17,608 bases of DNA, taken from assembly GCA_964247135.1 (NCBI GenBank), contig CAXTTL010000090.1, positions 1 to 17,608 of the forward strand, given 5' to 3'. Shown here in pieces: positions 378-17,608 of this stretch. The stretch's first letter is position 1, and each line of letters starts with the position of its first letter. The notes below the pieces were generated by a model that was given only the letters and a program-made list of their open reading frames with translations, was not told where the DNA came from and did no database searches. A program made the translations under genes and the position numbers. The DNA is from an uncultured Deinococcales bacterium. Its GTDB lineage: Bacteria; Deinococcota; Deinococci; Deinococcales; JAAFIG01.

Positions 378-422
378 AACTTCACCGAGAACCCTCGAGC
401 CAATGCGGACATGATCGGCATT

Positions 423-2378: not shown

Positions 2379-2386
2379 GCGCCACT

Positions 2387-3019: not shown

Positions 3020-3082
3020 GAGGTTATCTTAAACGCCGCTCGGTGTGTACCGTGAGGATTCGATAAATTCGAGATCAGGATT

Positions 3083-3961
3083 TTAGGCTCGAGCAACGAC
3101 GATTTGGGTGCTTGGAAGCGTAAAAGGCAGTGCGTTCTCGTCGATGATTTCAAAGGCGTCTCGCCATTTGTCTTTTAAGAAATCAATCGTGTAAACCTGC
3201 CGCGTTAGGGGCGTAAAACCAGTCTGGTGCAGTAACTTCTCGAGATCATCGCCGTTCGCCCAACCAAAAATTTCGCCGACCTCAATGTCCCAGTTGGTTG
3301 CGTAAAAATATTTGGTGGCAAATTCGTAAAAATGACTCGCCTGCATGGTGCACAAATTTCCTTGCAGCGCAAACTCGAGTTTGAATGGTCTGAAGTCGTC
3401 GCTGAAGCGCCAAAAAATTTCTTGGAGTGCAGGATTTTTAAACCGAATCTGTAAGAACTGCGGCTCGAGCCTGACCCCGTCTCGAATGATTAACCTGCCG
3501 CCAGGGAGAAGTAAACTTTTCGCCAAACCAAAAATTTGTTTTGCCGCCACCAACATGGGCGACACGCCAGCCTCGAAAAAACGCTCGGGACGCTCGAGGG
3601 CGAAGGTGGCAAATTCGTGCAGGGCGCTGCACAAGATGACGCTCGAGAATTTTGGTTCGGTCAGCTTTTCTGGATGCTTGCACAACTCAAAAATATCCTG
3701 ACGGTAAAAACGAACCCGATCCCCAAGCTGTTTGGCGGCGGTTCCAAGCAATTTGGCGCTCAGGTCAATGCCGACCAATTCCAAAGTTGGATCACGAAGC
3801 TGCAACAACTCGAGCACCGCCCCCGAACCACAACCCAGTTCGAGCACTCGGTTGCCGGTCACAAACTCGAGCATTTTGGCTTTATCGGGTTTGCTCATAG
3901 CCATGCCAGCCACGTATTCCGACAGCCCCACGGCGTCGTGAACGTCGGCGCGGGTGCTCAT
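3083..3961 (-). CDS. Class I SAM-dependent methyltransferase (292 aa)
   Basis: Motif I VLELGCGSG, acidic LVGIDLS, SALHEF, and LLPGGRLIIRDG; start overlaps the upstream stop (ATGA). Confidence 0.9.
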   Translation of the reverse strand: MSTRADVHDAVGLSEYVAGMAMSKPDKAKMLEFVTGNRVLELGCGSGAVLELLQLRDPTLELVGIDLSAKLLGTAAKQLGDRVRFYRQDIFELCKHPEKLTEPKFSSVILCSALHEFATFALERPERFFEAGVSPMLVAAKQIFGLAKSLLLPGGRLIIRDGVRLEPQFLQIRFKNPALQEIFWRFSDDFRPFKLEFALQGNLCTMQASHFYEFATKYFYATNWDIEVGEIFGWANGDDLEKLLHQTGFTPLTRQVYTIDFLKDKWRDAFEIIDENALPFTLPSTQIVVARA

Positions 3962-4380
3962 AAATCATCAAACTCGAGCACAAAACCGGCTTCGATCTCA
4001 GCTTGCATTTTCTCGAGTTGCGCTGGGGTTGGAATGCTCAAGGACACAAAAGACCAACGTGCGATGCCGTCGTTCTGGTCTTTGCTCGCCTCGAGTTTGA
4101 CCACATGAAAAATCATGTTGCTGCCAAGCAAGCGCATTTCGCCAGGTTTGTTCCATGCTGCCAGTTCGCGCTTCAAAACGCTGATTTCGCCGCGCACCAC
4201 CCAAATTCTTCCAGTGCCGATCAGGTCGTTCAAGCCCGCTGGCGGTTTTCGACGGCGAAATTGGTCGCTGACCGCCTGGTCTTTGGTGCGTTTGTCGCGG
4301 GTGATGCTGAGGATGATGGCTTCCAGCAAAGGAATGCTGGTGTCAGCACCTTGAATGCGTGGATGGATTAAGCTCATCAT
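3958..4380 (-). CDS. Hypothetical protein (140 aa), translationally coupled to the methyltransferase
   Basis: GGAG about 10 nt before ATG at 4380 (ORF track extends to 4440); ATGA overlap with the next gene; fills the gap after aroH. No family recognised. Confidence 0.65.
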   Translation of the reverse strand: MMSLIHPRIQGADTSIPLLEAIILSITRDKRTKDQAVSDQFRRRKPPAGLNDLIGTGRIWVVRGEISVLKRELAAWNKPGEMRLLGSNMIFHVVKLEASKDQNDGIARWSFVSLSIPTPAQLEKMQAEIEAGFVLEFDDL

Positions 4381-4468
4381 GATTGCTTCACTCCGTTCGA
4401 TAGTACGACACCCTCGAGGTTTCACGGTGTTCATTTGCACTTTTGGCTTTTAAAAGTACAAATCTTGC

Positions 4469-4870
4469 TTACTGTGCGCTCTCGAGGTCGGGTCGCAGCA
4501 CCACGGCATCTCGGAGGTAAACGTGCCTGATGTCCTGTTGTTTTTTATCGGTGTTAAGGTGCATCATCACCCGAATGGCGCGTTGCAAACGCCCAGGCAC
4601 CGGAATCTCGAGGGCATTCAAGAGCGGCACGAATTTCATGTTCAACCCGTTTCTTGCGGCTTCGGCGGGAAAGGCGGCGTTCAAATCTGGGGTCACGGTA
4701 AAAATGATGCTGCACAAACCCTCGAGTTCTGCCGCCGACGGCGCATGTGGGTGTTCGCAGACCGAATTTTGGGCGAGCATTTCGATCAACAGTTCTTTGG
4801 TGGCGTCAAAAATTGCCTCTGGAGTGTTTTCAATTACCGTGGTTGCACCGCGAATGCCTCGCATCATCAT
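4469..4870 (-). CDS. aroH: AroH-class chorismate mutase
   Basis: [50 protein letters not shown] match the AroH family. Three tandem ATGs make the exact start uncertain. Confidence 0.96.
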
Positions 4871-4879
4871 GATGTTGCG

Positions 4880-4888
4880 AGTCTAACA
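4880..4888 (-). promoter_or_regulatory. Extended -10 element (TG-n-TAGACT) for aroH
   Basis: Minus strand reads gaTGtTAGACTcgcaacatcATG; no Shine-Dalgarno present. Confidence 0.55.
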
Positions 4889-4943
4889 TCACTTCCCAAA
4901 AGACGCACCTGGCTTGTTTAGCCCGATGCCTCGCGCTCGGATT

Positions 4944-4972
4944 TTGGAATTCATTCCCAAATGAATTAGAAT
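4944..4972 (+). promoter_or_regulatory. Sigma70-type promoter of mmsA/iolA with overlapping inverted repeat
   Basis: TTGGAA (4944-4949), 17 bp, TAGAAT (4967-4972); AATTCATT-N4-AATGAATT at 4948-4967. Confidence 0.6.
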
Positions 4973-5042
4973 CGATCAGCAAATCGAAAGTAATTTGAGC
5001 GTCAATCGAAACCAGTCACATGTTTTTATTCAGGAGGAAGCC

Positions 5043-6575
5043 ATGACCCTTGCCGCCGAACCGACCACACCTGCCACCCAAACTGCCAAACGAATTCACC
5101 ATTGGATCGCCGGAAAACCGCACGCCTCAACCTCTGGGCGCAGCGCCCCCGTGTACAATCCTGCCAGCGGCGAGATTCAGGCAACCGTCGATCTGGCGAG
5201 TGTCGAGGAAATCAGCCATGCCATCGCCACAGCCAAAGCCGCCTCGGTTGGTTGGAGGGTAACACCGCTCGCCCGCCGTGCGGAAATCATGTTCAAATTC
5301 CGCGAATTGCTCGACGCAAACCGCCAAGAGCTGGCGCACATCATCAGCCTCGAGCACGGCAAAGTGCCCAGCGATGCGCTGGGCGAAATCGCCCGAGGCT
5401 TGGAAAACGTCGAATTCGCCTGCGGCGTGCCGCACCTCTTGAAGGGCGGTTTTTCCGAACAGGTTTCTCGAGGGGTCGATGTTTACAGCATCCGTCAACC
5501 TTTGGGCGTGGTGGCTGGCATCACGCCCTTTAACTTTCCGGCGATGGTGCCGCTCTGGATGATCGCCAACGCCGTGGCTTGCGGCAACGCCTTTGTCTTA
5601 AAACCATCCGAAAAAGACCCGAGCGCCAGTTTGTTCATTGCCGAACTCTTGAAACGCGCCGGTCTTCCCGACGGCGTTCTGACCGTGATTCACGGCGATA
5701 AACTCGCGGTCGATACGATTCTCGAGCATCCAGATATCGCCGCCGTTTCGTTTGTCGGCAGCACGCCAATTGCCAAATACATTTACGAGACCGGAACCAA
5801 GCACGGCAAGCGCGTTCAAGCCTTGGGCGGCGCGAAAAACCACATGTTGCTGCTGCCCGACGCCGATGTCGAGATGGCAGCCGACGCCGCCGTCAGTGCC
5901 GCCTACGGCTCGGCAGGCGAACGCTGCATGGCGATTTCGGTGGTGGTCGCGGTGGGCAACGTTGCCGACCCAATGATCGAAGCCTTGCGCGCCAGGTTGC
6001 CAAAAATCAACGTTGGACCTGGCACCGACAAAGACGCCGAAATGGGACCACTCATCACCCGCGAACACCGCGACAAGGTTGCGGGGTATCTCGAGAGTGG
6101 GAAGGCTCAAGGCGCGACCCTGGTGGTCGATGGTCGTGACGCCGACATTGCCAAGTCAGACGGTTTTTTCTTGGGTGTCAGCTTGATGGATCACGTCACC
6201 GCTGACATGGATTCGTACAAAGACGAGATTTTTGGACCCGTCTTGCAAGTCGTTCGCGTCAACACCTATGAAGAAGGCTTGAAACTCATCAATGACAATC
6301 AGTACGGCAATGGGACGGCAATCTTTACCAGGGACGGCGGCGCGGCGCGGCAATTCCAATTCGATGTCAACGTCGGCATGGTCGGCATCAACGTGCCAAT
6401 TCCGGTGCCAGTCTCCTATTACAGCTTTGGCGGTTGGAAAGCCAGCTTGTTCGGCGACACGCACATGTACGGACCCGAAGGCATTTTGTTTTACACCAGG
6501 GGTAAAGTCGTCAGCTCGAGGTGGCCCGACCCGAGCACCTCAAAAGTCGATTTGGGCTTTCCGCAAAACCGTTAA
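5043..6575 (+). CDS. mmsA: CoA-acylating (methyl)malonate-semialdehyde dehydrogenase (MmsA/IolA), 510 aa
   Basis: ITPFNFPAMVPLW, LKPSEKDP, SFVGSTPIA, KRVQALGGAKNH, catalytic GERCMA, EIFGPVL, FGGWKASLFGD. Start placed at ATG 5043 after AGGAGG. Confidence 0.96.
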   Translation: MTLAAEPTTPATQTAKRIHHWIAGKPHASTSGRSAPVYNPASGEIQATVDLASVEEISHAIATAKAASVGWRVTPLARRAEIMFKFRELLDANRQELAHIISLEHGKVPSDALGEIARGLENVEFACGVPHLLKGGFSEQVSRGVDVYSIRQPLGVVAGITPFNFPAMVPLWMIANAVACGNAFVLKPSEKDPSASLFIAELLKRAGLPDGVLTVIHGDKLAVDTILEHPDIAAVSFVGSTPIAKYIYETGTKHGKRVQALGGAKNHMLLLPDADVEMAADAAVSAAYGSAGERCMAISVVVAVGNVADPMIEALRARLPKINVGPGTDKDAEMGPLITREHRDKVAGYLESGKAQGATLVVDGRDADIAKSDGFFLGVSLMDHVTADMDSYKDEIFGPVLQVVRVNTYEEGLKLINDNQYGNGTAIFTRDGGAARQFQFDVNVGMVGINVPIPVPVSYYSFGGWKASLFGDTHMYGPEGILFYTRGKVVSSRWPDPSTSKVDLGFPQNR

Positions 6576-6587
6576 TGACCATAAAAC

Positions 6588-6612
6588 AACCCTCGAGATC
6601 AACTCGAGGGTT
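6588..6612. terminator. Hairpin between convergent genes, probable bidirectional terminator
   Basis: AACCCTCGAG-atcaa-CTCGAGGGTT with A-rich left and T-rich right flanks. Confidence 0.7.
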
Positions 6613-6628
6613 TAACTTTAAGTTGTTT

Positions 6629-7447
6629 TTAGTGCTTGAGCAATGCGCCCAAAATTCCGGTCAAAATCGCGCCAGTGCTCGAGGCTCCAGCATCGCGTTG
6701 ACCGTTGGGGTGGGTCATGTTCGCGCCCTGGTTGACCGCACCCAACAGCGACCCAAGAATGTCCGCCATGCCACCGCCCTGGGATTGCCCGCCGCCAAGA
6801 ACGCTCCCGAGGATGCCGCCCAAGCCGCCAGCTTGTGGTTGTTGCGCTTGTTGAGGGTGCTGTCCGCCGCCGAGCAACCCACCGACAATATTGCCCAGCG
6901 CTCCGCCGGCGCTACCGCTGCCTCCGCCGAGCAGACTGCCCAAAACGTTGCCGAGTGCACCGCCCCCACCGCCATTGCCCATCAGGCTGCCGAGAATGCC
7001 GCCCACGTCCAAGCCGCCAGGCGCCTGCTGACTGCCGCCTGTTAACATCCCCAAAAGTGGTCCCAGTGCGCCCAAAGGACCAACTTGATCGACCCCCCTG
7101 GTGTCATGGTTCGCAATGCCTGCGCCCAAGGCGCCGACAATTGGCGCGACATCTTGCGGGGTCAATTGATTTGGGTGCCCCTGATATTGTTGTGCCGCCT
7201 GCGTGAAGGCGTCCGAGTACGCTTTGGAGGTAAAACCGCTCGAGCTGTTCCCGATGGCTTGAGCCGCCGCTTGAAACTGCGTGCCCAGATCGGCATTCGG
7301 GTCGCTCGAGGTGGCTTGCTGCGCGGCTTGAAATTTTGCCAACACGTCCGAACCGTGGGTTGGATGGGCTGGATCGGCTGAATTGAGTGATTGTTCTTGG
7401 GTTTTAAGCTGGTCGACCACATTGCCAAGTACGTCTTGAAGTGTCAT
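6629..7447 (-). CDS. Gly-rich protein with degenerate DAK2/DhaL-like domain (272 aa)
   Basis: GGAAGGA before ATG 7447. SLNSADPAHPTHG, SSSGFTSKAYSDAF and RDAGASS resemble DhaL-type motifs, split by repeated LGGILGSLLGG segments. Confidence 0.65.
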   Translation of the reverse strand: MTLQDVLGNVVDQLKTQEQSLNSADPAHPTHGSDVLAKFQAAQQATSSDPNADLGTQFQAAAQAIGNSSSGFTSKAYSDAFTQAAQQYQGHPNQLTPQDVAPIVGALGAGIANHDTRGVDQVGPLGALGPLLGMLTGGSQQAPGGLDVGGILGSLMGNGGGGGALGNVLGSLLGGGSGSAGGALGNIVGGLLGGGQHPQQAQQPQAGGLGGILGSVLGGGQSQGGGMADILGSLLGAVNQGANMTHPNGQRDAGASSTGAILTGILGALLKH

Positions 7448-7667
7448 GGAAAATCCTTCCGTCATACCGCAAATTTCTTCTCGAACCTCGAGCAACCTCG
7501 AGACGATCAAAGGTTTACGGATACGAAATCCTAGCACCGATTGAATCAGTCCGTGAAGACTTTGAATTTGAAGAATTCTTAAAACTTATGGGGGAAGGTT
7601 ATGGCTTTATTTTGTCCAAGAAATATTTGATTTGAGTCCAAACCACTTCACAAAGTGGTCTGGAAAC

Positions 7668-7697
7668 TTGACACGCTTTCAACCCTCGAGATAACCT
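7668..7697 (+). promoter_or_regulatory. Sigma70-type promoter of the sugar ABC operon
   Basis: TTGACA (7668-7673), 18 bp, TAACCT (7692-7697); flanked by inverted repeats at 7642-7659 and 7725-7749. Confidence 0.6.
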
Positions 7698-7814
7698 CAT
7701 GGAACTGCTCAGCATAGCGATTTTCGTTACGAACTTTTTGTTTGTAACGCTCGGGTGTTTCCCGAGGGGTTTTAAGCCTGAATTGTGGCTCGAGGAGAAC
7801 CTGAGGAGGTTCGT

Positions 7815-9086
7815 ATGAAACGAAAGCTGTTAATGGGACTCGTGGGGCTGGGCATGGCTGCCGGTTTGGCTGGCGTCGTGGCTCAAAGTGGAACTGGCAA
7901 ATTGGTCTACAATTCGGACGCGTCCGATCCAGCACCGAAAGCTTACGATCAAAAGATTGTCGCGCAGTTTAAAGCCAAATACCCAGGCATCGACATGACG
8001 CACAACACCGTCGATCATGAAAGCTTTAAGCAAGCCATTCGCACCTACCTCGCCAGCGACAATCCACCAGATGTTCTGACCTGGTTCGCCGGAAACCGGA
8101 TGCGTTTCTTCTCGAGCAAAGACCTGGCTGCCGACATTGGTTCGGTCTGGAAAGACAACGGCTGGGAAAAGACCTTTCCAAAGGGCTTCCAAGCGCTGTC
8201 TCAGGACAAAGGCAAGTACGTCTTCTTGCCAACCAGCTACTACTGGTGGGCAATGTATTACCGCAAGGACATCTTCCAGAAATTGGGCTTGAAGGAAGCC
8301 AAAACCTGGCCAGAATTTTTGGGCCTGTGCCGCTCGCTCAACAAGGCAGGCGTCACGCCAATCATGACCGGCTCGAAGTTCCTGTGGCCACTGGGCGGCT
8401 GGTTTGATTTCTTGGACATGCGCGTCAACGGACCACAGTTTCACGTCGACGTGACCGACGGCAAAATCAAGTACACCGACAGCCGCGTCCGCAAAGTCTT
8501 TAGCTACTGGAAGCAACTGCTGGACAACAAATGCTTCCTCGAGAACAGCGCCAGCTACGACTGGCAAGACGCCGCGCAGCTCATGACCCAAGGCAAGGGC
8601 GCGATGTACCTGATGGGCGATTTCATCCGCGACCAATGGAAAGACGGACTGGAAGCCAGCCAACTTGACTTCTTCCGTTTCCCAATCATCAACGCCAAGT
8701 TGCCAGTCGGCGAAGAAGCCCCAACCGACGGATTCTTTGTGCCAGCCAAAGCGCCAAATATTGCCAACGCCAAACTCTTCATGGGTTACCTTGGCAGCAA
8801 GGAAGCCATGGAGCAAGGCGCCAAAGAACTCGGTCGTTTGGTTCCACGCAGCGATGTGGACAAAGCACTTTATGCCAGCAAGCCACAAATTGCCAAAGCC
8901 CAAGCCACCGTCATCGAACCAGCCGATTACATCGCGCAGTTCTATGACCGCGACACCGACCCAGAAATGGCGAACATCGGCATGAAAGGCTTCCAACAAT
9001 TCATGCAAGACCCAAGCCAACTCTCGAGCATCCTCAAGAACCTCGAAGCCACCCGTGAACGAATTTACGGTAAAATCACCCAGTAA
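7815..9086 (+). CDS. Carbohydrate ABC transporter substrate-binding protein (family 1), 423 aa
   Basis: GAGGAGG then ATG 7815; signal peptide; PPDVLTW, YYRKDIFQKLG, PEFLGLC, GKGAMYLMGDF; followed by two CUT1 permeases. Confidence 0.93.
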   Translation: MKRKLLMGLVGLGMAAGLAGVVAQSGTGKLVYNSDASDPAPKAYDQKIVAQFKAKYPGIDMTHNTVDHESFKQAIRTYLASDNPPDVLTWFAGNRMRFFSSKDLAADIGSVWKDNGWEKTFPKGFQALSQDKGKYVFLPTSYYWWAMYYRKDIFQKLGLKEAKTWPEFLGLCRSLNKAGVTPIMTGSKFLWPLGGWFDFLDMRVNGPQFHVDVTDGKIKYTDSRVRKVFSYWKQLLDNKCFLENSASYDWQDAAQLMTQGKGAMYLMGDFIRDQWKDGLEASQLDFFRFPIINAKLPVGEEAPTDGFFVPAKAPNIANAKLFMGYLGSKEAMEQGAKELGRLVPRSDVDKALYASKPQIAKAQATVIEPADYIAQFYDRDTDPEMANIGMKGFQQFMQDPSQLSSILKNLEATRERIYGKITQ

Positions 9087-9099
9087 GACTTAATGCGGG

Positions 9100-9138
9100 A
9101 ATCCCGCTCGGGGGTCATCTCGGGCGGGATTTTATTTT
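9100..9138 (+). terminator. Intrinsic terminator/attenuator hairpin after the binding-protein gene
   Basis: AATCCCGCTCGGG…CTCGGGCGGGATT followed by TTATTTT. Confidence 0.7.
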
Positions 9139-9283
9139 CAAAACAGACCCTGAATCCAAAATCTGGTTATTTTGCTAAGACAAGAGTAGACTTCAAAAGT
9201 ACAAAATTAGAAATTTCGTTGAATAGCACACCCTCGAGAAACCGTTCACTCCATGTTCAAAACTCGAGATCAAAGGAGGTTTT

Positions 9284-10246
9284 ATGGCTCTGGCAAGCAG
9301 GCGCACCCGAAGCGCAAATTATCAGACTTTGGCGCTCAACCGCTTCTTGGTGATCTTCTCGTTTTTAGCGGTTCCATTGGGACTTTACATGGTTTGGGTG
9401 CTGTGGCCCACCCTTTACACTTTCTACTTGTCACTGACCAACTGGGATTCTTTTACGCCACCCGTTTTTGCGGGATTTGAAAACTACAAAAACCTATTTT
9501 CAGACCCAGAATTTCAACACGCCATCATCAACAATGCCATCTGGATTTTGGTCTTTATCACCGTGCCGACAGCCGCAGGTTTGGCACTGGCGACGGTGTT
9601 GAACAACAACTTGCGGTTTGACCGTTTCTTAAAGGTCGCGTATTTCCTGCCAATGGTGATTGCTCCAGTGATTATCGCGCTGATCTGGAGTTGGATTTAC
9701 CTTCCCCAACAGGGATTGTTAAACGCTTTTATCAATCAAGTGCTTCAATTGCTCAAAACCCTTGGTTTTAACGTCGATCCCAAAGCGGCATACAGCATTG
9801 GTTGGCTCGGCGATCCCAAACTGGCACTGATTGCCGTGATGGCACCTGCGGTCTGGCGGCAAACGGGTTATGTCATGATTCTGTATTTGGCTGGTCTAAA
9901 AACCGTTGACGCCGAAGTGGTCGAAGCCGCCAAAGTGGATGGCGCGACTGGCTGGAGCATGTTCAGGTACGTGATTTTCCCGATGCTCTCGCCGGTCACC
10001 ACCATCGTGGTGGTGGTCTCAATCATCGACTCCTTGCGGTCGTTTGACATCGTCAACGTCATGACCAAAGGTGGTCCGGTCAGCGCCACCGAAGTTCTGG
10101 CAAATTACATGTACGTCAAATCTTTCGATGACAACAGACTCGGTTACGGCGCTGCGATTGCCGTGGTGCTCTTTGGATTTGCCTTAATTTTCGTCATGAT
10201 GTACTTGCGCCAAGTCATGGCACAGGAAGACGAGGGAACAGCATGA
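9284..10246 (+). CDS. Carbohydrate ABC transporter permease (MalF/UgpA type)
   Basis: AGGAGG RBS; FAGFENY, YFLPMVIAPV, EAA loop EAAKVDGA, TKGGP; multiple transmembrane helices. Confidence 0.95.
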   Translation: MALASRRTRSANYQTLALNRFLVIFSFLAVPLGLYMVWVLWPTLYTFYLSLTNWDSFTPPVFAGFENYKNLFSDPEFQHAIINNAIWILVFITVPTAAGLALATVLNNNLRFDRFLKVAYFLPMVIAPVIIALIWSWIYLPQQGLLNAFINQVLQLLKTLGFNVDPKAAYSIGWLGDPKLALIAVMAPAVWRQTGYVMILYLAGLKTVDAEVVEAAKVDGATGWSMFRYVIFPMLSPVTTIVVVVSIIDSLRSFDIVNVMTKGGPVSATEVLANYMYVKSFDDNRLGYGAAIAVVLFGFALIFVMMYLRQVMAQEDEGTA

Positions 10247-11118
10247 GCCTAGCCCAACCCGCCCAAGTCAACAAAGTCGTCCGCGAGAAAAAAATTCGCA
10301 AGGGCGTTCATCCCGCCGTGATTTTCATCGTCTGGTTTTTTGCGCTGTTGTGGCTCGTTCCAATCGTCGGCGCTTTCCTGACCGCCTTCAGAACCTTTGA
10401 TGACCTCAACGAATTTGGCTTGTTCAGCATTCCACACGTGTTCACACTCGATAACTTCACCAGGGCTTGGAATCAAGCCAACCTTGGGCAATTCATGCTC
10501 AACAGCTTCATCATCACCATCCCAAGCCTGACCGCCTGCGTTTTACTCTCGAGCATGTGCGCTTATGCCCTGGTGCGTTTCCGCTTTGCCCTCGCACGAC
10601 CCTTGTACATGATGTTCGTGGCGGGGTTGATGCTGCCATTTCAAATGCTCCTTCTACCCGTTTTTAAGCTCTCGAGCCAACTTCATATTTACAATACCTA
10701 CTGGTCACTGATTTTGATTCACACCGCGTTTCAACTTGGGTTTTGCAGCTTTGTGTTGCGCAACTTCATGCGCACCGTCCCGCCAAGTTTGTTTGAATCC
10801 GCCGTGATCGACGGCGCAACCGAATGGGTGATTTTCCGCCGCATCGCATTCCCGCTGATGCTACCTGGTCTTGCTGCACTCGCCACGCTCGAGTTCACCT
10901 GGATTTTCAATGATTTCCTCTGGGCGCTGGTACTCATTCAGGACACGCACCTGAAGCCAGTCACGACTGGTCTGGCGAACTTGCGCGGGCAGTTCACCAC
11001 CGATTACCCACTGATTGTCGCTGGAAGCCTTGTGGCGACCATTCCGACATTGATTGTGTTCTTTGGGTTGCAACGCTATTTTATTCAAGGTTTAACGGTT
11101 GGTGCGACCAAGGGTTAA
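10243..11118 (+). CDS. Carbohydrate ABC transporter permease (MalG/UgpE type)
   Basis: ATGA overlap; FTLDNF, AYALVRFRF, ESAVIDGA, WIFNDFLW, QRYFIQGLTVGATKG. Confidence 0.95.
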   Translation: MSLAQPAQVNKVVREKKIRKGVHPAVIFIVWFFALLWLVPIVGAFLTAFRTFDDLNEFGLFSIPHVFTLDNFTRAWNQANLGQFMLNSFIITIPSLTACVLLSSMCAYALVRFRFALARPLYMMFVAGLMLPFQMLLLPVFKLSSQLHIYNTYWSLILIHTAFQLGFCSFVLRNFMRTVPPSLFESAVIDGATEWVIFRRIAFPLMLPGLAALATLEFTWIFNDFLWALVLIQDTHLKPVTTGLANLRGQFTTDYPLIVAGSLVATIPTLIVFFGLQRYFIQGLTVGATKG

Positions 11119-11131
11119 ATTCTCGAGCATC

Positions 11132-11177
11132 AAAAAGAATCTCGAGCTTTGGATATTTCAAGGCTCGAGATTTACTT

Positions 11178-11178
<1 letters not shown>
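11132..11178. terminator. Bidirectional terminator between the ABC operon and tRNA-Gly
   Basis: Stem AATCTCGAGCTTT (11138-11150) / AAGGCTCGAGATT (11160-11172) with T-rich tails on both strands. Confidence 0.7.
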
Positions 11179-11253
<75 letters not shown>

Positions 11254-11263
11254 GATCTTCTCG

Positions 11264-11292
11264 AGTTTAGCGAGTTACGCGCTTTCGTGCAA
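11264..11292 (-). promoter_or_regulatory. Dedicated promoter for tRNA-Gly
   Basis: TTGCAC, 17 bp, TAAACT ending 10 nt before the tRNA. Confidence 0.7.
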
Positions 11293-11297
11293 GTATC

Positions 11298-11328
11298 AAA
11301 AAAAAGAATCTCGAGCGCAAACTCGAGA
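11298..11328 (-). terminator. Intrinsic terminator after tRNA-Tyr
   Basis: Minus strand TCTCGAGT-ttgc-GCTCGAGA followed by TTC and a T8 run. Confidence 0.75.
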
Positions 11329-11332
11329 AACG

Positions 11333-11417
11333 TGGTGGGCAGGGATGGATTCGAACCATCGTACGCTATGCGAACGGATTTACAGTCCGTCTCCTTTAAC
11401 CACTCGGACACCTACCC
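11333..11417 (-). tRNA. tRNA-Tyr (GTA)
   Basis: GGGTAGGTGTCCGAGTGGTTAAAGGAG-ACGGA-CTGTAAA-TCCGT, long variable arm, GGTTCGAATCC, ends CCA; 85 nt. Confidence 0.97.
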
Positions 11418-11663: not shown

Positions 11664-11753
11664 GGAGAGGTGTCCGAGCGGTTTAAGGAGCACGCCTGGA
11701 AAGTGTGTGTATGGGAAACTGTACCGAGAGTTCGAATCTCTCCCTCTCCGCCA
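11664..11753 (+). tRNA. tRNA-Ser (GGA)
   Basis: GGAGAGGTGTCCGAGCGGTTTAAGGAG-CACGC-CTGGAAA-GTGTG, long variable arm, GTTCGAATC, CCTCTCCGCCA; 90 nt. Confidence 0.97.
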
Positions 11754-11779
11754 AAAATGTTGTACAGCACGGCATTTTG

Positions 11780-11823
11780 AAATCAGACCCTCGAGTGTAA
11801 TTTGTCTCGAGGGTCTGATTTTT
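11780..11823 (+). terminator. Intrinsic terminator after tRNA-Ser
   Basis: 16-bp stem AAATCAGACCCTCGAG / CTCGAGGGTCTGATTT running into a T tract. Confidence 0.85.
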
Positions 11824-11962
11824 GCTGTTTTCGGGAGTTTTTCGGGAGATAGAAATTTTGTCCAATATTTTTAACTCGAGTTTGCCTGAAAATCAAAGAC
11901 GTTGGCATCTCGAGATGCCGTGATTCCCAAAATTGCTATTTTGGGACTGCGTTAAAGGTAGT

Positions 11963-12653
11963 GTGATTAACCTTTCTATTTTTACGCGAGAAACCTTCAC
12001 GATGCCTTTTGAGTACGCTCAAGGTTTAAAACGTGGAATGCAGTTGTATCAAGGCAGAACATGTGGTAATGTGAAGTATGACTTCGAGGGGTTGGCGCTT
12101 ACGTGAACTGGCTGTGAAATTTAATTCACAGCATTATGCGCGTGACGATAGATTGTTGCGCCACAGTGATCATTGTGGCGGTTTTGCATCTGAGCACCCT
12201 GGATTTTATGATTTTGAAGAAGATATTTTTTCAGCGACTCCTAATGAATCTCCAGAAATAAATGATCCTATGCGCGATAAGCAGGAAAAATTTAGACTTC
12301 GGGTGTTCCCTGATGTTTTTTAAAAGAAAAAGGGTTATAGGCGTTTAAATAGAAAGAGATTAACAGCTTGGGCAAATTATCTTTGGAAAGAAGAAAGCGC
12401 TAGTTTTAAAAAAAATATTGTTTCAAAATCTTTGGGAGATAGTGATCCCAAAGATTTCGGTCTAAATCTTGCTGAATGGTTTGGCAATAATTTTATTTTG
12501 ATCTTGAATATGTTCGCGTCATTTATTCTTTTTCGTAAAATTTACGTTGATGAACGGGTGACTAACTTTGAGTTTGAAGTAAATACACAACCCATTTATT
12601 CGCTATTTGAGATTCACCCACAAATACAATCAACTTGCGCTCCTAACGTCTGA
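11963..12653 (+). pseudogene. AT-rich hypothetical gene interrupted by a nonsense codon and probably a frameshift
   Basis: ORFs 12078-12323 and 12432-12653 share a frame separated only by TAA at 12321-12323. An upstream ORF, GTG 11963 to TGA 12106, overlaps in another frame. Confidence 0.55.
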
Positions 12654-12719
12654 GAACACACGGTTATCGCCTTGTGTTTCTCACCTCGAGTATTTATTGC
12701 TCGAGTGTACGTTAGGAGC
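12639..12719 (+). promoter_or_regulatory. Structured 5' leader (three-way junction) hiding the RBS of the HTH gene
   Basis: 11-bp perfect closing stem GCTCCTAACGT/ACGTTAGGAGC enclosing two hairpins; TACAAT at 12625-12630 just upstream. Confidence 0.6.
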
Positions 12720-12725
12720 TTTTAA

Positions 12726-12956
12726 TTGAATAGTCCATTAAATCCGCAAGTTATCACGGTTAAAGCTTACTTTGGTGTGTCAGACGTTGCAGAACGTTGG
12801 GGGGTGCATCAAAACTTCGTTTACAATTTGATTAAGGGTGGTGAGCTTCCTTGCCTTCACCTTGGCAACCCCGGAACAAAACGCCCTGTAATTCGCATCC
12901 CACTTATTTCACTTGAGGCTTGGGAAGCAAATCAACTCACCAAAGGGCAAAAATAA
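12726..12956 (+). CDS. Excisionase/AlpA-like winged HTH protein (HTH_17 type), 76 aa
   Basis: YFGVSDVAERWGVHQNFVYNLIKGGELPCLHLG…IRIPLISLEAW; AGGAG 7 nt before TTG. Confidence 0.88.
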   Translation: MNSPLNPQVITVKAYFGVSDVAERWGVHQNFVYNLIKGGELPCLHLGNPGTKRPVIRIPLISLEAWEANQLTKGQK

Positions 12957-13102
12957 TGCTCCGTGCTGTTAACACGGAGTTCTCGAGTACGGGGCACTTG
13001 ATTGTACCATCTCGAGCGTTAAGGCTTGTCCCATTTGGGACAGGCAAGGTTCAAATCCTCGTTTTTAGCTTGCTAAATTTGGAGGTACAACATGGCGCGT
13101 GA
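12956..13102 (+). CDS. Putative 48-aa leader/coupling peptide
   Basis: ATG overlaps the HTH stop (TAATG); frame stays open across the whole spacer and ends 11 nt inside the primase gene. Confidence 0.4.
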   Translation: MLRAVNTEFSSTGHLIVPSRALRLVPFGTGKVQILVFSLLNLEVQHGA

Positions 13103-15410
13103 TGATTTGCGTGATGCGTTGCAGTCCGACGCTAACAGCATCCCCGCACTTCTCGAGAGTTTTGGAGTTGATACTTCTCGCTTGACTACAAATGGTGGTG
13201 TGATGCTTGACCCGCGTCCAGGGCATGAAGAAAGCAATCCTAGCTTTTCGGTATTTCGAGGAACTGATGGTGTGTGGTTGTACAAACGTCACGGCGATGA
13301 TGGCGACAGTGGAAACGCATTTGATTTAGTAAAAGCATTTAACAAAACGTCCGGTGAGGCGGCGCAAACGCTGAAAGATCGCGCTGGGGGTAACACCGTG
13401 TCACACGCCCCGCGTTCTCTTTCGCTTGCAAAAACTGTACCGAAACCCAAGCCAAAACCCATTTACAAACCCGTGAGTCCCACACTCTCTGTCAAGCTCG
13501 AGAAAGCACAGCACGCTTTGGCAGGACTCGAAACCTTGCCCGACTGCTTGACCGCTCGAGGTTTTGATGCTGCGATGTGTGAGGTTTACGGTTTGGGACT
13601 CGAGAATGACGCGGTACTCATCCCAATTTATCGCGGCGCTGACTTGGTGCAAATCAAACAACGCAATCCAAACAGAGAACAACCGCGTTACAAATATCTC
13701 GAGCCAGGGCATGGCGCACCCGCATGGTTAAGCCCTGATTATGCAAACCCGACAACTCGAGCCGTGCTGATTGTTGAGGGCGAATTCAACGGACACGCGG
13801 CACACGCGGCGCTCGAGAATGCGGGTTTGAGCCTTGCCGTTCAGGGTGTCGGAGGTGTGAAAAATCAATTGCACCTCGAGCAGCTTTCAGGACGTGATGT
13901 TTTCGTGTACGCCGATGGTGACGAACCAGGAGGCAAAGCGGCACAAAAATGGGCAGCACTGGCACAAGAAAACGGTGCAAGCCAAGTCAAGATTCTCGAG
14001 CCACTGCCAGAACTCCAAGACTTTTGTGATTTGCTCGGCACGAGCGGCGCTGATGGTCTTAGCACATGGTTACAAAACGCTTTTGTTGAAGCACAAACAT
14101 TTGAACCTGATTCGTTCGAGGACAATAGTCTTAATTCGGGCGCTGATGAAAACGGATTCCCAGAACTCGCAGAAGAGGCATTGTATGGACTGGCTGGCGA
14201 TGTTGTCCGAGCGATTGAACCAACAACAGAAGCACACCGCGCCGCGCTTCTATTTTCGTTTTTCGTAGCTGTAGGAATTGCACTTGGAACAAAACCACAT
14301 TGGAAAATTAGCGGCGTAATGCACACTTTGCGTTTGTTTATCGTTCTTATCGGATTGAGTGGCAAGGGTCGCAAAGGCACGTCTTGGGGTGCTTTACGCG
14401 GTGTTACCGAAACCGCATTTGGTGATGATTTTTATGCCGAACACGTCACAACTGGACTGAGTAGCGGTGAAGGTTTGATTTATGCCGTGCGTGATGCCGT
14501 GCAAAAGCCTATGACCAGAGACGGCAAGGTTGAACTGCAAATCGTTGATGAGGGCGTTGCCGATAAACGCTTGGTCGTTCTCGAGTCTGAGTTTGGGCGC
14601 GTGTTGAAAGTCATGAACCGTGAAGGTAGCACCTTGTCACCAATTATTCGGCAAGCTTGGGAAATTGGTGCAAAAGATAATTTGCGCGTAATGACGAAAA
14701 ATTCAACCACGGCAACGGGCGCACACGTTGGAATTGTTGGACACTGCACCCGTGATGAGTTGTTAAGGTATCTCGAGGATACCGAAACGGCAAATGGTTT
14801 TGCGAATCGTTTCCTTTGGGTGATGACCAAACGCGCTCGAGTCTTGCCTTTCGGGGGAGAACCGAACCAGCACGTAATGAACAAGCTTGGTGAGCGCCTG
14901 AAAGCCGTGGCGATGTGGCTCGAAGGTACAGATGGTGTCCTGTACTGGGGCGAACAAACAAAACCTCTTTGGGCGAGTATCTACCCTGACTTAAGTGAAG
15001 GCTCGAGCGGTTTAAGCGGTGCGGTTACATCTCGAGCCGAAAGTTATGTCATGCGCCTTGCGGGATTATACGCGGTGTTAGACAAGTCACTCGAGGTCAA
15101 ACCCGAACACCTCACAGCGGCACAGGCATCTTGGGAATACTGCGAAGAGTCGGTGTTTAACATCTTTGGAAGGCGCACGGGCGATGTTGTCGCAGATGCG
15201 ATTCTGGAAGCACTGAAAGCACATGCCGATAAACGCCTGACCAAGACCGAAATTTCAGCTTTGTTTCAACGAAACCAAAGCGCGGGACAGATTGATCGTG
15301 CTACCCAGGTACTTGTCCGAGATGGCAAAGCCCGAATGACAAAAGGTGAGTCTAAGAACGGCGGTAAAGCACCTCAGATTTTGGAATTGCTGGGTATGCA
15401 ATATGGGTAA
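13092..15410 (+). CDS. Primase-helicase fusion: degenerate CHC2-like domain, Toprim, DUF3987/YfjI-like ATPase (772 aa)
   Basis: GGAGG RBS; PGHEESNPSFSV; Toprim VLIVEGE…YADGDEPG…DFCD; P-loop GLSGKGRKGTS, SSGEGLI, LESEFG, NGFANRFLW; possible C-terminal winged helix. Confidence 0.88.
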   Translation: MARDDLRDALQSDANSIPALLESFGVDTSRLTTNGGVMLDPRPGHEESNPSFSVFRGTDGVWLYKRHGDDGDSGNAFDLVKAFNKTSGEAAQTLKDRAGGNTVSHAPRSLSLAKTVPKPKPKPIYKPVSPTLSVKLEKAQHALAGLETLPDCLTARGFDAAMCEVYGLGLENDAVLIPIYRGADLVQIKQRNPNREQPRYKYLEPGHGAPAWLSPDYANPTTRAVLIVEGEFNGHAAHAALENAGLSLAVQGVGGVKNQLHLEQLSGRDVFVYADGDEPGGKAAQKWAALAQENGASQVKILEPLPELQDFCDLLGTSGADGLSTWLQNAFVEAQTFEPDSFEDNSLNSGADENGFPELAEEALYGLAGDVVRAIEPTTEAHRAALLFSFFVAVGIALGTKPHWKISGVMHTLRLFIVLIGLSGKGRKGTSWGALRGVTETAFGDDFYAEHVTTGLSSGEGLIYAVRDAVQKPMTRDGKVELQIVDEGVADKRLVVLESEFGRVLKVMNREGSTLSPIIRQAWEIGAKDNLRVMTKNSTTATGAHVGIVGHCTRDELLRYLEDTETANGFANRFLWVMTKRARVLPFGGEPNQHVMNKLGERLKAVAMWLEGTDGVLYWGEQTKPLWASIYPDLSEGSSGLSGAVTSRAESYVMRLAGLYAVLDKSLEVKPEHLTAAQASWEYCEESVFNIFGRRTGDVVADAILEALKAHADKRLTKTEISALFQRNQSAGQIDRATQVLVRDGKARMTKGESKNGGKAPQILELLGMQYG

Positions 15411-15969
15411 GTTGCTCGAGCGTATCAAAGCTCAATTGATGACCCGTTACGAAAAAGACGAAATTGACGAAATAACCGTCAATCAAAAGGCAAACACTTT
15501 TGCTGAGGTTACGAAATTGGATTCACGCCCTCCAAACCCTGTAGTACCTGAACCTAATTTCGTAAACCCTCAAAACTTGGGGAGTGTTTCAGGCACAGCT
15601 ATTTCGTCACATTCGTTAAATTCGCTCAATGAACGTCAGAGCATTCCTCAAACGCTCGAGCTTCCCTTAAGTGAGTTTGATTCCAAGGTTATTGTTCCAT
15701 CTGTTTTTACATCCCCTTGGACTGCATTCCGTGACAGCGTGGAGCGTGTCTGGGGCTTACTCCAAGCCAAAGGGACACGCACCGTTCACTTGGTCGGTGA
15801 CGGTCAACGTGTTGCAACGCACTTCACGGCTCGAGATGCAAACCAATTGAAGGCGCTGGCTGACTCAGGCGAGAAGGCATACCCAAGCATCAGGACTTTA
15901 GGGGTTATCCCAGTCTTGCCCGATATGGTCATGCTCGAGTTCACCACGCAAAGCCAAGCACAAGCCTAA
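15403..15969 (+). CDS. Hypothetical protein (188 aa) overlapping the iteron array
   Basis: ATG 15403 overlaps the primase stop by 8 nt. No family recognised. Confidence 0.6.
   Translation: MGKLLERIKAQLMTRYEKDEIDEITVNQKANTFAEVTKLDSRPPNPVVPEPNFVNPQNLGSVSGTAISSHSLNSLNERQSIPQTLELPLSEFDSKVIVPSVFTSPWTAFRDSVERVWGLLQAKGTRTVHLVGDGQRVATHFTARDANQLKALADSGEKAYPSIRTLGVIPVLPDMVMLEFTTQSQAQA
15449..15625. repeat. Convergent iteron array, putative replication origin
   Basis: ACGAAA at 15449, 15458, 15467, 15511; inverted copies TTTCGT 15558 and 15602, ATTCGT 15611, ATTCGC 15620. Confidence 0.75.
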
Positions 15970-15980
15970 CCCTGTCCGTA

Positions 15981-16011
15981 TTGGCACACCGTCACCGTGA
16001 CGGTGTGCCAA
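15981..16011. repeat. Perfect 31-bp palindrome
   Basis: TTGGCACACCGTCAC-C-GTGACGGTGTGCCAA; 15-bp arms, intergenic, no T tract. Confidence 0.9.
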
Positions 16012-16047
16012 GCACCCAAGACCCCCACTCAATCAAAGGAACAAATC

Positions 16048-16458
16048 ATGTCATTGATAAGAACACCCAACTTAGACGTTCGCAGAATCATTGGTGAAGG
16101 TAGAAACTTCTTTTTGGTCTTGAAGATTCGGTTTCACGTCTGGGCGTACAAACGCAAACTCAACTCGAGACTTCAAACCCAGAAACGTTCCAAGCAGAAA
16201 CTAGCGGATCGTTGGCAGTCTCTCGAGTTAGACCAAAAGCAACTTGTGCCTTGCTTAACGGGGCTTGCTTTGACTGAACATATTCAAGTTTTACATGACT
16301 TTGAATGCAGCAATCAAGACTTAGAAGCAGGATTGCTCGAGCAGCTTGCTCGAATGGACTGGTTGCTTTGCGACATGAAAAACAAACCGTGTTCAGACCG
16401 TGCCGAACTCGAGCAACTGCTTGAAATGATCCTCAAGATTCGGGCGGTAGGTTCTTGA
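16048..16458 (+). CDS. Hypothetical helical/coiled-coil protein (136 aa)
   Basis: AAAGGA 7 nt before ATG 16048; Leu/Glu/Gln-rich C-terminal half. Confidence 0.6.
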   Translation: MSLIRTPNLDVRRIIGEGRNFFLVLKIRFHVWAYKRKLNSRLQTQKRSKQKLADRWQSLELDQKQLVPCLTGLALTEHIQVLHDFECSNQDLEAGLLEQLARMDWLLCDMKNKPCSDRAELEQLLEMILKIRAVGS

Positions 16459-16724
16459 GTCTCGAGCAGACCATCAATAACATTCACGGGTTGCTGTTAA
16501 CCCTCGAGCGGTGCGCCCGTGTTGGCTTTCAGAACGACTTAGAACCCGCTCGAGCCTTAACGGTAGTGTCTGAACTCCGTATTGATTTTGGTTTGATGCT
16601 TGGGTGCGTTCCAGAGTTCACAGCCGAACAATTGATTGAGTTCCATATTGATCTTGCAGAGTTTCTAACAAGACTCGAGGCTCGAGTATCACCCTTGCTC
16701 ACGGTTAAGTCTTGCATCGCTTGA
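16455..16724 (+). CDS. Hypothetical helical protein (89 aa)
   Basis: TTGA start/stop overlap with the previous gene; amphipathic helical pattern. Confidence 0.55.
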   Translation: MSLEQTINNIHGLLLTLERCARVGFQNDLEPARALTVVSELRIDFGLMLGCVPEFTAEQLIEFHIDLAEFLTRLEARVSPLLTVKSCIA

Positions 16725-16811
16725 CGCTCGAGCATAGCAAGATTCTCAATCTTGGTTTATGTCGCAATTTCGCAGAAACCAAACAAAGTGAATCAAAAGA
16801 ATTGAGGTTAC

Positions 16812-17165
16812 ATGTCAAACAAACAACGTTTAGAACGTACAACTCCCCTGAATTGGGGCGGTGTACGGGAAAAGAGTGGTAGAAGAAAGTTAGCCCCTTC
16901 CTCGAGCGTCCGAATTGACCGTGAATTGCTCAGGCAAGTTAGGCGGTTCATGCGGTTTAACGGCAATCCTCGAGAGTTGGTTGAATGCGCCGTGAGGAAG
17001 GAATTACTCGAGCGTCAAACGGCTCGAGATGCACACCTCCGAGTTGTGGCACTCGGAATGTACGAGCGTAACAAAGCAAACGGGCGAGCATCCTCAGCAT
17101 TAGTGCGGAAGCTTGTCGCCGATGCGCAACGTGAGGATACCCCCCAGCATAAAAACGCGATTTAA
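16812..17165 (+). CDS. Putative ribbon-helix-helix DNA-binding protein (117 aa)
   Basis: WGGVREKSGR motif then SVRIDRELLRQVRRF…PRELVECAVRKELL (strand-helix-helix); GAGG before ATG. Confidence 0.65.
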   Translation: MSNKQRLERTTPLNWGGVREKSGRRKLAPSSSVRIDRELLRQVRRFMRFNGNPRELVECAVRKELLERQTARDAHLRVVALGMYERNKANGRASSALVRKLVADAQREDTPQHKNAI

Positions 17166-17233
17166 CTGGGTCGGGGAGCAGGGTATGAGTATCCAACCGC
17201 TCACCGAATTTTTAGAATTTTTGAAACTTTAGG

Positions 17234-17275
17234 CTCGAGGTTGTCCAGACAGTGGACAACCTCGAGTTATTTTTT
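17234..17275 (+). terminator. Intrinsic terminator after the RHH gene
   Basis: 14-bp stem CTCGAGGTTGTCCA / TGGACAACCTCGAG then TTATTTTTT. Confidence 0.8.
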
Positions 17276-17419
17276 GCTGGAAAGACCCACCCCTCTAGGT
17301 AGAAGCTATCCAGTTGCTGTCAGAATTTTTAGAGTTTTTGGTTTGAAATTTTTAGGCTCCCCGAGTACAAAACCGTTACTCGAGACGGTAAAAACTACGT
17401 TCAACGGTATTATCATGCG

Positions 17420-17608
17420 GTGCAAACCAACACCGCGCTCGAGCAACACCCATCAGGTGAAATTCCATCTGTACCACTTCCCGCAGGGTTTATTTCACTG
17501 GCGCAACACGCCACCCTAAACACGTATGACGAAAACCTCAACCAAATTTTCAGAGCTTTGCGCGTGTTTAATCCTGACAAACTCGAGCACTTAACCAAAC
17601 CGGAACTT
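17420..17608 (+). CDS. Possible hypothetical protein, 5' part (runs off window end)
   Basis: Frame open from 17333 to the end. First canonical start is GTG 17420, 6 nt after TATTAT; translates MQTNTALEQHPSGEIPSVPLPAGFISLAQHATLNTYDENLNQIFRALRVFNPDKLEHLTKPEL. Confidence 0.4.
   Translation, partial: MQTNTALEQHPSGEIPSVPLPAGFISLAQHATLNTYDENLNQIFRALRVFNPDKLEHLTKPEL

Follow-up and report, generated by a model that had tools for sequence, protein, structure and literature searches.

A site-specific island in tRNA-Ser(GGA) of an uncultured Deinococcales bacterium, a possible satellite of the PICI/PICMI type

Satellites and hitchhiking islands shape the conflict between phages and their hosts and carry defence genes, and to our knowledge they are known almost only from Proteobacteria and Firmicutes. 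The phage-inducible chromosomal islands (PICIs), which comprise the Staphylococcus aureus pathogenicity islands (SaPIs) and the Gram-negative PICIs, are elements of ~9-15 kb with an integrase gene (int) at one end, a pri-rep module, an iteron origin 3' of the replicase and an AlpA-type activator. PICMIs, the phage-inducible chromosomal minimalist islands, are defined by the colocalization of int with genes for AlpA (PF05930/PF12728) and a primase (DUF3987/DUF5906), and are described as satellites able to do without any packaging gene (PMC10803314). tRNA-integrated elements with AEP-type (archaeo-eukaryotic) primases have been reported from many phyla, Deinococcus-Thermus included in general terms (Kazlauskas et al., 2018, PMC5862659). 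Here we characterize a new member of this known int/AlpA/primase (PICI/PICMI-like) island class in an uncultured Deinococcales bacterium. The window, by which we mean the whole stretch of DNA analyzed, is an entire contig (C90; 17,608 bp) of the metagenome-assembled genome (MAG) G000, which comprises 5.09 Mb in 386 contigs and is 84% complete; C158, C131, C202, C253, C132 and C327 are further contigs of G000, and G001-G005 are other genomes of the genus. The window holds the tRNA-proximal half of a site-specific island of ~13.55 kb in the 3' end of a tRNA-Ser(GGA) gene, possibly with the lifestyle of a PICI/PICMI-type satellite, a reading that we favor with moderate confidence. That the island is an integrative mobile element is almost certain, and that it carries its own replication module with the origin described below is highly probable. 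A preliminary description of this DNA, made from its letters alone, had proposed an integrative replicon in a phylum where such elements are poorly described; the replicon is borne out by the integrase, att repeats, empty sites, replicase and origin, whereas the remark on the phylum holds for satellites and not for the tRNA-integrated primase elements already in print.

The ends of the island could be placed by comparison with unoccupied sites. Window positions 1-11118 carry ordinary chromosomal genes (LptF/G, methyltransferase, chorismate mutase, aldehyde dehydrogenase, ABC sugar transporter), followed by a tRNA cluster in which the minus strand carries Gly, Tyr and Thr genes and the plus strand Ser(GGA); in the Rfam scan, tRNAs alone reached the gathering score. 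The 3' part of the tRNA-Ser gene is the attL core (Table 1), and its counterpart attR lies on C158 (3702-3642) in the opposite orientation, identical at 59 of 61 positions by blastn. In the congeners G004 and G001 the site is empty, with the four-tRNA cluster ~38 bp from the ortholog (82-83%) of an NAD-binding gene that flanks attR on C158. In a four-way alignment the left-hand break falls directly after CCGCCAAAA and the right-hand break directly before CTGGAAAGTG; the first position of the island is 11757, and the window's end at 17608 cuts it off. The 3' part of the tRNA-Ser gene now comes from the island side of attL. The alignment with the empty sites also shows that the original tRNA terminator remains at attR, and a perfect inverted repeat with a T-run inside attL would replace it. 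No integrase adjoins the tRNA, and the preliminary description had argued that it must be distal or lost; it proved to be distal, a tyrosine integrase next to attR on C158, beyond which the contig continues with ordinary genes for NAD(P)H-binding, alpha/beta hydrolase, HD-domain and 2-hydroxyacid dehydrogenase proteins.

C90 and C158 are joined into one island by the empty sites in the two congeners, by a gene for a protein of ~290 aa that spans the gap, and by the TTCGGGAG repeats at both ends. The end of C158 is an open frame of 219 codons that forms the remaining part of the ~290-aa gene begun at the window's end, and only ~10 codons are missing between the contigs. TTCGGGAG occurs at 11830 and 11841, 70 bp inside attL, and three times in tandem after the int stop near attR, with no other copy in the island; the two arms share an identical block of 26 nt, and the repeats are probably the arm sites of the integrase. 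The joined island measures 5,852 bp in the window, ~30 bp in the gap and 7,665 bp on C158, and its gene order is confirmed by G003, where a single contig runs from the primase gene through int. The preliminary description had also pointed beyond the contig, where a prophage or conjugative module might lie; the integrase was found there, and the rest of the island contains neither.

Five other genomes of the genus were searched: G003 and G005 have an occupied site, G004 and G001 an empty one, and in G002 the site is not resolved. G003 carries the same island in the same tRNA gene, with a primase 93% identical, and G005 has an integrase 80% identical at the same site. Island DNA of G000 and G003 is 89.7-89.8% identical over 8.6 kb, vs. 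84.3% over 4.6 kb of chromosomal flank. Since two congeners have an empty site, the island genes do not belong to the core chromosome, an alternative that the preliminary description had kept in view. The tRNA cluster adjoins another variable spot, apparent in G003 (C655, ~4704-10332), where ~5.6 kb with ORFs of 331, 850, 277 and 177 aa separates an ABC permease gene from tRNA-Gly, since the two are ~60 bp apart in G000.

The replication module centers on a 772-aa protein in which a DnaG-like/Toprim part is followed by a helicase domain. Residues 40-345 match DnaG/Toprim-type phage primases (PHROG 239, 47, and 849 at 1.8e-11 to 4.6e-9); the Toprim_2 score of 21.9 bits falls short of the 22.1 cut-off, TIGR01391 reaches 8e-8, far under its cut-off, and the translation shows a cysteine-less 'HxExxPSF' stretch. 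For residues 350-772, 8,000 candidates were scored and at least 4,984 of them are homologs at E<=0.001; the majority bear the precomputed PF13148 label and some are named DUF3987 proteins; the window protein is itself labeled PF13148. The assignment to DUF3987 follows from this label and from the homologs, as PF13148 was found in 17 of 21 aligned C-domain sequences (35-56% identity; best 4.9e-16), and it has against it that the window replicase gave no local Pfam DUF3987 match even at E<=1. Across the 21 sequences G421, R427-K428-G429-T430, E498 and E500 are invariant, and Walker A-like and acidic Walker B-like motifs are conserved, with a deviant P-loop (KGRKGTS). Together, these comparisons support a replicase that combines Toprim with a divergent helicase domain of the DUF3987 type. 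One DUF3987 protein has been demonstrated to act as a 5'-3' helicase of a mobile-element replicon, together with a mobile-element primase (PMC11724360).

A candidate iteron origin lies directly 3' of the replicase gene. ACGAA[AT] occurs at offsets 38, 47, 56 and 100 after the replicase stop and in inverted copies at 147, 191 and 200, and five of the eight ACGAAAT copies of the window fall within 15458-15607; across the genome the motif averages 0.33 per 300 bp, vs. 7-8 observed here. G007 has a replicase 54-56% identical, and its offsets of 47, 56, 65 and 109 and 156, 200, 209 and 218 keep the same spacing, shifted by 9 bp; in the alignment of the two loci conservation is limited to the repeats, the sequence between them having diverged. 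G207, with a C-domain 46-48% identical, has a related GCGAAAGAA set in the same place, made up of two GCGAA[AC]GAA copies and three inverted copies, while C327 and G011, which have the other, canonical DUF3987 helicase type, carry different repeats. Since helicase type and repeat set co-vary, in few cases, the helicase half or its C-terminal part may be what reads the iterons.

The two halves of the replicase have been shuffled in evolution. The C327 paralog is 66% identical to the window replicase over a 149-residue BLASTP alignment of residues 233-373 (79% over 233-346 in the genome search) and then runs into a canonical DUF3987 domain (1.3e-73) unrelated to the window C-domain at the BLAST level. 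In G007 an N-domain 73% identical to that of G011 is joined to a C-domain of the window type, and in G207 a RepB-type primase is fused to a C-domain of the window type. When C327 2181-4073 is set beside the replicase gene of the window (13092-15410), near-identical Toprim segments lead into unrelated helicase domains, each with its own repeat set after it. Domain comparison of this kind suggests that origin specificity is reset by module swapping.

Homologous loci were collected via the primase, as the preliminary description had recommended, in 31 close relatives and 301 Deinococcota genomes. The primase was found in 11 of the former, and at least its N-domain in 87 of the latter (E<=1e-10); the surveys of the primase domain and of the small-terminase-like protein discussed below used two samples of ~300 genomes that may not be identical. 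G000 itself has at least three more integrase paralogs (37-40%), adjoining tRNA-Phe, tRNA-Lys and tRNA-Pro, and three more primase paralogs, on C253, C132 and C327, all at contig ends. Complete copies are present in closed genomes of related genera, and four tRNA islands could be delimited (Table 1). Their common layout is int, a small helix-turn-helix (HTH) gene beside int, a variable middle, small ORFs, the replicase, and an HTH_17 gene upstream of it. In four sediment metagenome runs, a relative 90-99% identical is present as assembled contigs (shares 0.16-0.18), one of which spans the tRNA/island junction. Insertion sequences (IS) accompany two of the loci: an IS3-type orfA/orfB pair lies inside the G007 island (10206-11383), and an IS1 transposase gene upstream of the C253 primase (3123-3773). 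The paralogous island on C327 encodes, at 1-795, a DUF4238 protein (Pfam 1.7e-30; PADLOC 'DUF4238-Pers' candidate defence gene, 6.3e-6) in the cargo position, downstream of the replicase and of a homolog of the 89-aa orphan.

One link to satellites comes from related islands in another family of the order. We call f1 the family of Deinococcales to which the genome of this island belongs, and f3 the other family, with islands that bear a gene for a small terminase (TerS)-like protein. In G107 this protein has 182 aa (6705-7253) and matches phrog_1482 (4.4e-6 over 30-159) and phrog_4044 (5.9e-8); its nearest ESM Atlas clusters are viral (0.95), some of them named terminase. The adjoining gene encodes a collagen-repeat protein that matches phage tail-fibre PHROGs via its repeats, and among 56 further ORFs compared with PHROGs the only virion-related matches were the TerS-like and collagen-repeat 'tail fiber' proteins of the G107 island. 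Of 301 Deinococcota genomes, 15 encode the TerS-like protein, and 14 of these belong to a single large genus of f3. Six of the 15 genes sit 2-5.5 kb from a homolog of this primase domain, and the other nine have no listed primase on the same contig; TerS-like gene loci are also present in G142, G050, G146, G109, and G271. Islands with int, HTH, TerS-like and primase genes were delimited in G107 (9.2 kb), G142 (11.2 kb) and G050 (12.1 kb). A small terminase without a large one in an integrase/primase island of 9-12 kb is a hallmark of PICIs. The TerS-bearing islands are PICI-like satellite candidates, and their presence in the other family raises the satellite reading of the window's island without proving it. 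These islands also have GTGTAGTAG-type doublets near both ends, in parallel to the TTCGGGAG arm repeats described above.

Several observations weigh against a satellite lifestyle. No gene of this island or of f1 resembles a terminase, a capsid, a scaffold or a known interference gene, and the TerS-like protein is found in none of 10 f1 genomes and has no tblastn match in G000 below E = 1. Pfam and PHROG scans of the island's ORFs gave no match to capsid, large terminase (TerL), portal, relaxase or type IV secretion system (T4SS) families, and the PHROG matches of the island are limited to primase, helicase and excisionase families; likewise, 41 ORFs of three complete relatives contain no capsid, TerL, portal, relaxase or T4SS family by Pfam. 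Genes for phage structure or lysis are absent from the island in these scans. Four orphans of the island have no tblastn match in 50,697 phage records, in which the replicase has a single weak match, and 0 of 18 candidate stretches for the replicase in IMG/VR were confirmed. Searches of G000 for four families of helper markers, namely the HK97 capsid, TerL (two families) and the portal, gave 0 matches, so that no resident helper is visible, a weak negative because the MAG is only 84% complete. The cargo gene beside attL is broken, and so some decay is under way. The four metagenome runs show no circle junction or empty site, being available as contigs only, which are poor at showing either. 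Finally, some islands not known to be satellites, such as CP4-57 of E. coli, are likewise marked by the int/AlpA/primase triad. Dependence on a helper phage is accordingly something that we regard as a serious possibility, short of being probable.

Part of this evidence would suit an integrated small plasmid-like replicon that excises, replicates, spreads phage-free as naked DNA or in vesicles and reintegrates by means of its own integrase. Natural competence is known in Deinococcus and Thermus, and the modules for integration and replication are complete, with no packaging or hijacking gene either here or in the closest complete relatives, G007 and G011. The missing markers of a helper prophage and the rarity of the replicase family in phage records (1 in 50,697) point the same way. 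Nevertheless, the four complete relatives, from different genera, keep to tight sizes of 8.4-9.2 kb, which fits packaging, as does the TerS-like gene in related islands of the same order, and no partition or copy-control genes were recognized. We consider a phage-free replicon of this kind unlikely.

An integrative mobilizable element, moved by a conjugative element of the host via an unrecognized oriT or relaxase, is conceivable, since the island is small, lies in a tRNA gene, has an integrase and encodes many orphans, each of which might be a mobilization protein that escaped recognition. Yet no relaxase, coupling protein or T4SS family was found in any island ORF scanned by Pfam, and what is conserved at the core is a module for replication, with its iteron origin, rather than one for transfer, which makes this explanation improbable. 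Equally improbable is an immobile remnant kept for its cargo (the WD40 protein, the secreted 273-aa protein, and the ~290-aa gene) while its mobility genes decay. The in-frame stop in the cargo gene beside attL, the two differences between the 61-bp att copies, and the presence of the island at the same site in G003 and G000 are in its favor, but the frames of the integrase, of both HTH genes and of the 772-aa replicase are open and intact, the arm repeats are intact at both ends, the island is closer between species than its flank, two congeners have empty sites, and further integrase loci (at least three) and primase paralogs (three) are present in the same genome. A prophage remnant was rejected, as the five relatives that were delimited are compact, keep their repeats intact and contain no debris of structural genes.

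In the satellite lifestyle that we favor, Int would recombine attL with attR into a circle, with the AlpA-like protein as excision or activation factor. The replicase would bind the iterons via its helicase or C-terminal part, unwind the DNA and prime synthesis, leading to autonomous replication of the circle. Spread would then require outside help, and a phage would be the likeliest helper, in the manner of PICIs and PICMIs.

The remaining features of the island fit around this core. From attL, the order is a terminator hairpin, arm repeats, a broken orphan, the HTH_17 gene, a hairpin-rich spacer, and the replicase gene. The iterons follow inside a 207-aa ORF, and then come orphans of 153, 89 and 117 aa, a hairpin repeat, the ~290-aa gene and a second copy of the repeat. 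Toward attR there are genes for a 273-aa protein (on the other strand), a 628-aa WD40 protein, a 77-aa ORF and a 91-aa HTH protein, and then int, arm repeats and attR. Nearly all core genes, int included, share one direction.

Of the eight features listed in the preliminary description, seven are present in the sequence and one, the ribbon-helix-helix protein, is unconfirmed. With regard to these features, the tRNA, the Xis/AlpA-like HTH, the primase-helicase fusion of Toprim and DUF3987, the iteron array and the small orphans had all been recognized in the preliminary description and stand, while other parts of that account need revision. The cargo gene that it reported next to the tRNA is present, but as two same-frame ORFs (12078-12323 and 12432-12653) that represent one orphan ortholog split by a TAA codon, probably a decaying cargo gene. 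GC content is 38% over 11757-12725, and in one metagenome contig positions 12133-12573 are replaced by 426 different letters. The hexamer CTCGAG is absent from 11909-12685, a 776-bp low-GC stretch with the broken cargo gene; the window contains it 107 times and the genome 33,925 times, or 6.66 times per kb (~27x the 1/4096 expectation), a density shared by the island half with its 46 copies in 5,852 bp. The structured spacer upstream of the primase does fold well, but such stability is common to other island spacers (z of -3.3 to -5.8 in three of them, vs. 0 to -2.25 in five chromosomal spacers). The spacer shows no covariation and no Rfam family match, is absent in G007, and is kept only in a 98.7%-identical neighbor, without compensatory changes; the proposed RNA-level control is not supported, there being only stable hairpins in a spacer that the family does not conserve. 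The assignment of a ribbon-helix-helix (RHH) protein in the earlier account is not supported, as the protein is a 117-aa orphan with no Pfam match, no structure match by sequence and no Foldseek match at E<=0.001. It has just two homologs among 1.84 billion representatives, and its model, of modest quality (mean predicted local distance difference test score, pLDDT, 67), consists of helices only (37-47, 53-89, and 96-107) with a low-confidence N-terminus.

The family to which the AlpA-like protein was matched, phrog_66, is annotated as 'excisionase and transcriptional regulator'; TIGR01764 scores 20.2 bits, under its cut-off of 28.8, and the protein is 98.7% identical in G003 and has paralogs of 42-53% in C131 and G011. 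Conservation of the 207-aa ORF in G007 concerns its N-terminal part. Exactly between this ORF and the 153-aa ORF is a perfect 15-nt inverted repeat with a 1-nt gap (15981-16011), which could be an operator or a terminator. The 153-aa orphan has no Pfam, PHROG, NCBIfam or PADLOC match and no phage tblastn match. A second copy (82%) of the ~117-bp repeat lies at C158 9575-9696, and the two copies therefore flank a segment that is absent from G003. The ~290-aa gene has only three homologs in a search of 5.8 billion proteins, and the family keeps the blocks RL[YF]RG, ASW[SA]F and NQYEA[IV]VG, whose spacing, as we take it, recalls the R...S-x-S...Q-x-E signature of ADP-ribosyltransferases, the model being too poor (mean pLDDT 55.6) for a test. 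The 273-aa protein (C158 8690-9511, opposite strand), 49% identical in G003, has an apparent signal peptide, read by eye from its N-terminus, and a Thr/Pro-rich linker; it has no family match, and its best ESM Atlas score of 0.76 is unusable. It may be a surface or exclusion protein. The 628-aa protein consists of 14 WD40 repeats, and the 91-aa protein is a Cro/C1-like HTH (family scores of 2.5e-7 in G007 and 6.6e-6 in C202). PADLOC gave only weak or domain-level matches for 29 island proteins, and no known defence system was indicated.

Table 1. Features of the island, its complete relatives, and the end repeats of TerS-bearing islands (window positions unless a contig, genome or locus is named).
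Feature	Position, or target and size	Strand	Basis or comparison
tRNA-Ser(GGA), integration target	11664..11753	+	ARAGORN; Rfam tRNA 52.3 bits
attL core, 61-bp direct repeat, 3' part of tRNA-Ser(GGA)	11696..11756	+	blastn; alignment with two congener empty sites
Perfect 16-nt inverted repeat and T-run, putative replacement terminator of the tRNA	11780..11821	+	Inverted-repeat search
Two tandem TTCGGGAG octamers, putative integrase arm sites	11828..11848	+	TRF; motif positions in both island halves
Ortholog of 191-aa G003 orphan, cut by one in-frame TAA (12321-12323)	12078..12653	+	ORFs, comparison with G003
AlpA/Xis-like HTH_17 protein, 76 aa	12726..12956	+	Pfam HTH_17 (PF12728) 1.5e-9; phrog_66 5e-5
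Hairpin-rich spacer upstream of primase	12957..13091	+	Folding z -3.74, 0/200 shuffles as good
Replicase (primase-helicase), 772 aa	13092..15410	+	DnaG-like/Toprim ~aa 40-345 and divergent DUF3987-type helicase domain ~aa 350-772
207-aa ORF overlapping primase end, holding iterons	15346..15969	+	97% in G003; 40% over 75 aa in G007
Iteron origin candidate	15449..15629		Directly 3' of replicase gene; repeat and motif searches
153-aa orphan	15997..16458	+	90% in G003
89-aa orphan	16455..16724	+	78% in G003; 38% in paralogous island on C327
117-aa orphan	16812..17165	+	60% in G003
~117-bp repeat unit with terminator-like hairpin (17232-17268)	17190..17352	+	Repeat comparison, folding
First 63 codons of ~290-aa gene, continuing at C158 11367-10708	17420..17608	+	Alignment with three 289-293-aa homologs
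Tyrosine integrase, 457 aa, adjoining attR	C158 3889-5262		PF00589 8e-20
Complete relative, G007	tRNA-Thr; 9,146 bp, IS3 included		Perfect repeat (45-51 bp range)
Complete relative, G011	tRNA-Ala; 8,442 bp		Perfect repeat (45-51 bp range)
Complete relative, G207	tRNA-Val; 9,053 bp		Perfect repeat (45-51 bp range)
Complete relative, G107	tRNA-Arg; 9,180 bp		93-nt repeat family at 85%
GTGTAGTAG-type doublets, L069 (G107)	3406-3429, 12343-12366		
GTGTAGTAG-type doublets, L072	5368-5390, 16271-16293		
GTGTAGTAG-type doublets, L071	1728-1751, 13530-13553		

These results define a coherent island family in Deinococcales, delimited base by base with its att cores, arm sites, integrase, AlpA-like regulator, replicase and origin, and with at least four related loci in one genome. 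The family provides candidates on which satellite biology can be tested in a phylum whose study has centered on DNA repair, and its compatible mini-replicons and integrases are potential genetic tools. Because the general class is already known, the gain is one of range and detail rather than of principle. A search of the literature on phage satellites in Deinococcus, by titles and the beginnings of abstracts, gave nothing on the topic; the tables of published satellite censuses may already include some of these loci. It is tempting to speculate, and we do so tentatively, that these are the first phage satellites of Deinococcota: one lineage-wide family of 8-14-kb tRNA islands with a PICI-like branch that has its own TerS (in the other family) and a minimalist branch (in this window), whose copies would coexist by means of their tRNA targets and swapped helicase/iteron specificities.

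Compared with known systems, the island resembles PICIs in size class, in having int at one end, an iteron origin 3' of the replicase, an AlpA-type gene and no virion genes, and also in the occurrence of several islands per genome at different att sites and of relatives in another family with a TerS-like gene. It differs from them in having no recognized TerS, Ppi, Cpm or master repressor, and in the single direction of nearly all of its core genes, int included. With P4-like satellites it shares tRNA integration, a primase-helicase fusion replicase with iterons, and a size of ~10 kb; however, PHROGs revealed nothing like psu, delta, sid, eps or cnr, and its helicase is of the DUF3987 type instead of the alpha type. 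The likeness to PICMIs is closer in gene content, as the same triad of int, AlpA (PF12728/HTH_17) and DUF3987-type primase is colocalized here, DUF3987 being assigned via homologs and label (PMC10803314). As in PICMIs, where iolg overlaps the start of int by 1, 4 or 13 nt, a small gene overlaps it here, the stop of the 91-aa HTH gene sharing 1 nt with int (TAATG), and both have variable cargo and no capsid-remodelling or terminase genes (PMC10803314). PICMIs are described as islands of ~6 kb and about six genes beside fis in Vibrionaceae (PMC10803314), whereas this island has ~13.55 kb (8.4-9.2 kb in relatives), tRNA sites and a Toprim N-domain, and belongs to Deinococcota. The tRNA-bounded primase elements have AEP/PrimPol primases in the published accounts (PMC5862659, PMC11724360), in contrast to the DnaG/Toprim-like primase found here. 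Nevertheless, the core of integrase, primase and DUF3987 helicase is the same as in these elements and in the AgaPP/AgaPH element (PMC5862659; PMC11724360), and the swapping of primase and helicase domains seen here is likewise a feature of tRNA-integrated primase-fusion elements (PMC5862659, PMC11724360).

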